Part shown: positions 18,061-18,333 of the stretch, piece after piece
Position numbering within the stretch: position 1 is the first letter of the stretch
Layout: each line of letters starts with the position of its first letter
DNA from: Eledone cirrhosa
Lineage: Eukaryota
Reading direction: 5' to 3'
Length of the DNA: 64,000 nt
Assembly: GCA_964016885.1 (NCBI GenBank)
Contig: OZ024751.1
Span: 12,772,001 to 12,836,000 of the forward strand
Translations under genes and position numbers: made by a program
Notes under the pieces: generated by a model
The model's database searches: none
What the model was told of the DNA's origin: nothing
What the model saw: only the letters and a program-made list of their open reading frames with translations

Positions 18061-18333
18061 TTTCCGTTGAAAATTGAAAAAGTCAGAGGAATGAAGAGTG
18101 CTCTATGTAAGTTACAGAGCTAAATATTTAATGTATAATAAACAATACAGTACAATTTTACCTTGTCTGATGAACGAATGCGGACGTGTCTTGTATTCGT
18201 CTTATTCGGGAAACCTCTGGTAATGAGGTAATTATACTGTATTGTTTATTATACATTAAATATTTAGCTCTGTAATTTACATAGAGCATTCTTTATTCCT
18301 CTGACTTTTTCTATTTTCAACGGAAACTTCAAT
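18061..18333 (+). mobile_element. Family D 266-bp hairpin element with complete hammerhead at apex
   Basis: 18061-18166 pairs with 18223-18326; (TA)n on both sides. Confidence 0.85.
18158..18231 (+). ncRNA. Type I hammerhead ribozyme
   Basis: TTACCTTGT-CTGATGA-a-CGAAT-gc-GGACG-tgtcttgtatt-CGTCT-t-ATTCG-g-GAA-ACC-tct-GGT-A-ATGAGGTAA; all three helices form, GUA cleavage predicted after 18222. Confidence 0.85.

Follow-up and report, generated by a model that had tools for sequence, protein, structure and literature searches.

Head-to-head 3' ends of a probable new Hydra-clade Penelope-like element, with a hammerhead motif at their junction

The window analysed here, a stretch of 64,000 nt from a TA-rich animal genome of 3.0 Gb, contains a 266-nt hairpin at positions 18061-18326. 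We are highly confident that it represents a dead copy of a Hydra-clade Penelope-like element (PLE), inserted in a (TA)n target and consisting of two 5'-truncated, hammerhead-bearing 3' ends of the element that lie head to head (Table 1). The two copies were likely joined during reverse transcription via the sequence likeness that hammerhead stem I provides. The hairpin is very probably the folded-back end of a PLE family that is new within the Hydra clade. Structures of this kind are known and ordinary for PLEs; the worth of this one lies in what can be read from it about a poorly understood life cycle.

Table 1. Features of the hairpin, its flanks and the related family B locus (window coordinates; a point marks features without strand)
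Feature	Position	Strand	Basis
(TA)n target, left flank	18049..18060	.	sequence
Inverted 5'-truncated second copy of the element 3' end, forming the 5' arm	18061..18157	-	BLAST and arm alignment
Head-to-head junction inside the stem I homology	18153..18163	.	sequence
Forward 5'-truncated copy of the PLE 3' end	18158..18333	+	95.6% to reference
Type I hammerhead, stem I to stem I	18160..18229	+	sequence, fold, covariation; cut predicted
'Tail' of ~77 nt between the two 3' end sites of the family (+36..44 and +110..120)	18258..18333	+	
Small GCTC..GAGC hairpin, a few nt past the first end site	18267..18287	+	
(TA)n target, right flank	18334..18380	.	sequence
Independent fold-back of the related family B; hammerhead core 10965-10910	10871..11021	-	

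The hairpin reported in an earlier note on this DNA is real, with a folding energy of -158.1 kcal/mol (z = -24.8) that none of 200 shuffled sequences reached. Its arms do run on directly from stem I, as that note had described, because the crossover lies within the likeness between the two stem I strands, and they pair with each other because the 5' arm is an inverted copy of the same element end. By BLAST, this arm is 99% identical to the reference pseudo-LTR (pLTR) and tail over positions +7..+103, numbered relative to the cut site, while the forward copy runs through the hammerhead, the first end site, the tail and the second end site in that order. At the junction, AATT..CCT is common to both copies and is accompanied by one substitution and a 2-nt insertion; the A at 18160 matches the inverted partner and occurs in only 1/36 long copies. 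Apart from that insertion, the arm alignment shows five differing positions, namely three C>T and one A>T as private changes of the 3' arm, plus a fifth difference at the junction. Three of the five leave G·U pairs on the + strand and none is a compensatory change between the arms, and we read them as drift after the duplication. ADAR hyper-editing of the arms was also considered and rejected, as its A>G pattern is not seen among these changes.

Judged by its sequence and context, the 18158-18333 unit is the 3' end (pLTR plus tail) of a Hydra-clade PLE. A search with a 21-mer from the 3' arm gave 2438 exact matches, compared to 0 for the reversed control. At locus L031, a 1.2-kb 3' UTR and the end of a GIY-YIG-type EN C-terminus lie upstream of the hammerhead-tail unit, and at L062 the unit follows an open frame of 719 codons (712 aa from the ATG). 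The unit is found after the ORF and 3' UTR in L031 and L062-L067, and ahead of a 5' UTR and ORF in L069, L072 and others. Among 30 loci picked by the start of the ORF, 12 have the order 3' UTR, hammerhead, tail, 120-nt 5' UTR and ORF, and the repeated unit is therefore a pseudo-LTR.

The ORF encodes an RT followed by a C-terminal GIY-YIG EN, with YRDD and YVGMT motifs in L062. Its protein carries RWK, DKT (with DKG changed), a CxCX5C linker, and CxxC and CxH, which flank conserved E and N residues, and the motifs RWK, DKT, CxCX5C, CxxC and CxH are among the Hydra-clade features listed in section 11 of PMC8557442. Pfam searches with the EN piece and the ORF and a PDB sequence search returned no matches; the Hydra identity of the ORF is based on these motifs, on its Atlas neighbours, part of whose members carry PF26215, PF01541 (GIY-YIG) and PF00078 (RVT_1), and on a by-eye comparison in which the protein resembles Hydra-1_Obim. 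The element also displays further Hydra-clade traits, including (TA)n insertion, a hammerhead in the pLTR, partial tandems, inverted 5' copies and a tail. At L065:7082-7927 (+) lies the C-terminal portion of another, distant Hydra-like ORF, which shows 37% identity across 143 aa.

To avoid the bias of a hairpin query, we built an unbiased sample of copies from the first 100 anchor matches (2438 in total). In this sample, 50 copies end at +110..120 and 40 at +36..44, 6 continue into the ORF, and 4 end otherwise; in the sister subfamily, 42/73 copies end at the long site and 29/73 at the short one. A small hairpin (GCTC..GAGC) occupies +44..+64, and its motif GAGCACTCTTCA occurs again 130 nt later, in the 5' UTR. 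The second GCTC follows the first by ~76 nt, which is the spacing of the two end sites, and its pairing is predicted among suboptimal folds only. The unbiased sample includes 22 fold-back loci with an adjacent inverted partner, of which 18 combine a short and a long arm, none combines two long arms, and one is joined at stem I. The BLAST-ranked loci, which are biased toward hairpins, added seven further stem I-type junctions, each different and all short plus long. Arm lengths and junctions thus vary from copy to copy, and the hairpin studied here is long (+110) plus near-long (+103), unlike the 18/22 sampled fold-backs; L002 is a second case of this kind.

These observations are consistent with a scheme in which the endonuclease would nick both strands of the palindromic TA target and RT would begin internally at two sites, which would account for the short and long arms. 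Inverted 5'-truncated copies and tails are known for PLEs (PMC8557442), opposite-strand hammerhead pairs have been reported (PMC4209133), and in Poseidon_Ac reverse transcription was shown to begin at two internal sites, and both strands to be cut (PMC11167929). A cDNA primed in the 5' repeat of the RNA would then run off at the capped 5' end, that is, at the base of stem I, and two such cDNA ends would anneal at short homologies. In the 18061-18326 hairpin, the annealing would have fallen within stem I, so that the arms extend stem I in register, and the long duplex would be a by-product that has drifted in the meantime (five differences).

This copy's own joining step may differ from the usual one, as it is long plus near-long. 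For the same reason a self-primed fold-back is a real alternative for its junction, in which a cDNA that ran off at the base of stem I would have primed on its own stem I complement. A later template switch in replication may otherwise have lengthened a shorter hairpin. Self-priming predicts arms with nearly equal far ends, as found here (+110 and +103) and in L002 but in 0/22 of the sampled fold-backs, and it also fits a junction within the stem I homology. However, the two arms end at least 7 nt apart, and self-priming is impossible for the stem I-type loci L003, L005, L008 and L027, in which the hammerhead arm is short and the inverted arm long; joining of two cDNAs at stem I therefore does occur. 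We regard these other joining routes of the same element as a serious possibility, though a less probable one.

Family B, which has 1683 exact matches to its own anchor, provides a diverged homologue within the window (Table 1). Its stem I is CTCTGT/ATGGAG, as the earlier note stated, but the arms pair over only ~47 bp and the junction is different; the forward arm ends at the short site and the inverted arm spans 10979-11021. The window also holds several other loci of similar kind. Another hammerhead family with a palindromic stem III (GAAA TATATA) and a like two-arm layout is found at 13477-13686 (minus, core 13574) and, in a damaged copy, at 4000-4110 (minus). A near-perfect 496-nt fold-back at 43231-43726 has opposed hammerhead-like cores at 43415 (minus) and 43535 (plus), and a 389-nt perfect palindrome in (TA)n at 9916-10304 has CTGACGA once in each arm, with no complete hammerhead seen in it. 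Short fold-backs of a further family (..CCCCGACGGC..GAGCTCAAGCCGTTTCGA..) lie at 10742-10845, 14398-14443 and 50634-50744, and are often stacked beside family A and B ends in one TA run; we take the sequence of this CCCCGACGGC/GAGCTCAAGCCGTTTCGA family to be reminiscent of PLE ends. Hammerhead-like cores of other families or small fold-backs were noticed with TA repeats at 538, 742 and 51398 (plus), 23898 (minus) and 53967-54065. A GC-richer tandem repeat at 5302-6240, with long open frames of a repeated peptide, is unrelated to the hairpin.

The hammerhead itself has C3-A9 (CTGATGA) at 18167-18173, G12-A15.1 (GAAA) at 18210-18213, a stem III of 3 bp (ACC/GGT) with a 3-nt loop at 18213-18221, and GUA at 18220-18222, with the predicted cut at 18222|18223. 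Stem I is CCTTGT/ATGAGG (18160-18166/18223-18229), and stem II (18175-18208, ~11 bp) stands behind an A·G mismatch. All type I core residues listed in PMC3088659 (C3 U4 G5 A6 N7 G8 A9, G12 A13 A14 A15.1, U16.1 H17) are present, stems I, II and III can form around the core in a constrained fold, and a sequence pattern written for hammerheads of this type matches 11,672 times, versus 2 for the control. The earlier note called this hammerhead complete; one caveat is the pair at 10.1-11.1, usually G-C, where this copy has a mismatch and 178/182 family A copies have A·G; the same source rejects hits that lack this pair unless activity has been measured (PMC3088659). The Rfam searches do not back the description as complete either: no family reached its gathering score within the 64-kb window, and at E<=10 positions 18000-18400 matched no hammerhead family, just generic miRNA-hairpin models far under their cut-offs. 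In addition, the predicted minimum-energy fold of this copy buries the CUGAUGA strand and is 3.0 kcal/mol lower than the hammerhead-compatible fold; across the copies that could be constrained, the hammerhead fold lies 2.7-9.7 kcal/mol above the minimum in an energy model that ignores tertiary contacts.

U4C is found in at least 71/182 family A copies (examples of this sublineage are L064:6456-6563 and L403:1418-1523), and it reduces in vitro activity in a viroid case (PMC3088659). That the sublineage is large and yet has spread suggests that full catalysis may not be needed for mobility. At the cut site, the 5' ends of copies show no enrichment (3 versus 1.3 expected, and 0 versus 0.3), and one duplicated event has its start there (L093/L094). 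A hammerhead with a canonical G10.1-C11.1 and a 4-bp stem III, possibly suited as an in-genome positive control, was seen at L065:5623-5745 (-).

The earlier note suggested compensatory change and proposed a covariation test. Across four family-level sequences, stem I pairs at 24/24 positions with both sides changed (strand-shuffle p = 0.083, from an alignment-free count over these four families only), which upholds compensatory change for the 6-bp stem I, though not for the long arms. The covariation test also came out in its favour: the score was 0.223 compared to 0.151 when shuffled, and 0/500 shuffles reached it, in a set of 18 representatives whose relatedness inflates the result. This score in turn understates stem I pairing, because MAFFT placed the C and D families one column off in the 3' strand of stem I, while core conservation in the set is circular, because the core was part of the selection. 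Covariation supports stem I as a putative helix of the hammerhead, and not the long rod.

The 5' ends of copies accumulate at the first base of stem I. In subfamily A1, 9 copies begin there versus 1.36 expected (n = 100, in a hot-spot window that was chosen after the data were seen), followed by 4 versus 0.26 in subfamily A2 (n = 73) and 14 versus 0.98 in family B (n = 73). The base before this hot spot in family B is G in 73 and A in 27 of the first 100 of 144 genome-wide matches, whereas a control position five bases inward has 4 G and 9 A among 13 (Fisher p = 0.009 after six tandem units were collapsed to one). In family A, the hot spot is preceded genome-wide by 38 G and 23 C among 61, and the control position, scored by eye, by about 4 G and 2 C among 20 matches, which leans to G as well. 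When bases that could have come from a partner arm, from a microsatellite or from a continuous copy were removed by eye, the clearly untemplated ones among 30 loci of family B were 10 G and no more than 2 A, and among 30 loci of family A 10 G and 1 C. At other junctions, G was found in 17/76.

An extra G at L1 5' junctions has been taken to derive from the mRNA cap (PMC11702581), and PLE start sites sit in the pLTR (PMC2377424; PMC8557442 section 10). Together with the pile-up at stem I and the untemplated G, these parallels point to a capped RNA that probably starts on the first base of the hammerhead, with run-off cDNA made from the 5' repeat. A splice acceptor behind the hot spot was rejected, as no AG precedes it and the upstream sequence is variable. 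A G left by strand transfer in continuous copies was rejected too, being found in 0/47 of these, with the 2-3 cases among 30 G/C-picked loci too few. We found no report of a fixed 5' end with an extra G in PLEs in the literature searched, to which subscription papers or supplements could add one, and the capped-start result appears new relative to that literature. It would provide a base-exact predicted RNA start at a ribozyme and a cap signature in three subfamilies that can be tested directly at low cost.

Two side observations concern this site. At L366-L371 (G000:C1:420967300-420967575), six tandem 51-nt units each begin with G plus the first stem I base, which may reflect either several successive restarts at the junction or a tandem expansion that came afterwards. 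At L279 (G000:C1:161562232-161563444), the base of stem I is the starting point of both head-to-head arms, and CG connects them, which amounts to one extra G per arm.

Instead of a capped start, the hot spot may mark a structural stop, where RT falls off or a nuclease trims the RNA at the base of stem I, while the G would reflect a general bias in the untemplated additions of this RT. In favour of such a stop, the hot spot lies just where a helix begins, and none of the 12 ORF-linked copies extending as far as the base of stem I ends there. Because of this 0/12, a capped start needs efficient strand transfer, circles or read-through for full copies. The lean to G at the family A control also favours a stop, as does R2, to which PMC13000458 ascribes untemplated addition of G and T in vitro, in a passage that makes no mention of a cap. 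On the other hand, the family B control, the 17/76 at other junctions and the by-eye counts of untemplated bases in both families all speak against a stop, and we consider a structural stop possible but less convincing than a capped start.

If the start is indeed capped, a fuller life cycle can be proposed, albeit tentatively. The uncut linear RNA would be terminally redundant, with its capped start at the hammerhead, and copying primed in its 5' repeat would yield DNA resembling retroviral strong-stop DNA, which may give rise to the thousands of short copies with a G derived from the cap; full and partial-tandem copies would come from strand transfer or from circles cut by the hammerhead and religated. 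The transfer of strong-stop DNA is a step of retroviral replication. The ribozyme would act as a decapping switch at the extreme 5' end of the mRNA, and the pseudo-LTR would be a true R region.

The many short copies with one fixed start and two fixed ends may also bring to mind a non-autonomous, retrozyme-like RNA that consists of the hammerhead-to-tail piece, arises from solo ends and is mobilised by the PLE enzyme; animal retrozymes have been proposed to be derivatives of PLE pLTRs (bioRxiv 10.64898/2026.07.22.740005). This seems unlikely, as the locus has a single hammerhead and no tandem units, and the unit forms the terminus of an element with coding capacity and is hence not ORF-less. 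Further, 66/100 anchor-picked copies reach -112 or farther into the 3' UTR, and 64/73 sister-subfamily copies extend past -100.

The earlier note read the long arms as a transcribed dsRNA rod capped by an active ribozyme, with cleavage giving a nicked duplex and the arms a source of small RNAs. The great stability of the fold and the G·U pairs left on the + strand would suit a rod under selection, but the arms arose as copies of one another, their layout is not conserved among copies, their differences (transitions and one transversion) are private and uncompensated, and ends do not accumulate at the cut site; that reading is not supported for the arms, and we hold a selected rod to be very improbable. 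A short palindrome within a TA target might also suggest an assembly chimera, or else a fold-back DNA transposon or MITE bounded by terminal inverted repeats. This is the least credible reading of all, given that the arms are unequal and variable and the unit is contiguous with an RT ORF, and that five arm differences and unlike outer ends are unexpected from read-through. In the Logan contigs of four runs, none extends across the locus.

As an insertion of a Hydra-clade PLE, the preferred reading, the element is best compared with the C-terminal EN+ PLEs of that clade, including Hydra-1_Obim (Craig et al. 2021, PMC8557442), with which it shares the RT and C-terminal GIY-YIG motifs, the (TA)n target, the pLTR hammerhead and the inverted 5'-truncated copy. 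In many of the Hydra hammerheads in File S2 of that paper, stem II is separated from the core by one unpaired base per strand, as found here. Despite these similarities, the present element is larger (~3.7 kb with a 1.2-kb 3' UTR, whereas published Hydra elements are generally <3 kb), its tail is longer (~77 nt compared to 30-40), the mismatch beside its core, mostly U·U in the published elements, is here A·G, C·A or A·A, and its large U4C sublineage sets it apart from the Hydra families in PMC8557442.

Poseidon_Ac (Frangieh et al. 2024, PMC11167929) belongs to another clade but likewise has two end sites downstream of the cut site and an AT-rich target, and likewise lacks a genomic sign of copies ending at the cut site; the account given there concerns the start of copying, and not a fixed 5' run-off or an extra G. 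The minimal hammerheads of PLEs (Cervera and de la Pena 2014, PMC4209133) are also of type I, occur in PLE repeats that are mostly truncated copies, and include opposite-strand pairs 100-700 bp apart; a weak stem III and low expected activity are further common points. Their consensus retains G10.1-C11.1, however, while the clan described here lacks it and has a long stem II (~11 bp).

The start inside the pLTR that is predicted here has counterparts in Penelope of Drosophila virilis and in Chlamys-3_cRei (PMC2377424; PMC8557442 section 10), both of which have an intron after the start, the D. virilis intron ending at helix I. Unlike in these two, the start proposed here would be the first stem I base, with no acceptor AG before it. 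The origin of pseudo-LTRs and of head-to-head inversions, and the role of the hammerhead, are called open in PMC8557442 and PMC11167929. Similar to full-length LINE-1 insertions (PMC11702581), the copies analysed here have one untemplated G before a fixed 5' end, but in LINE-1 the G marks full-length copies, whereas here it marks very short head-to-head copies of a PLE.
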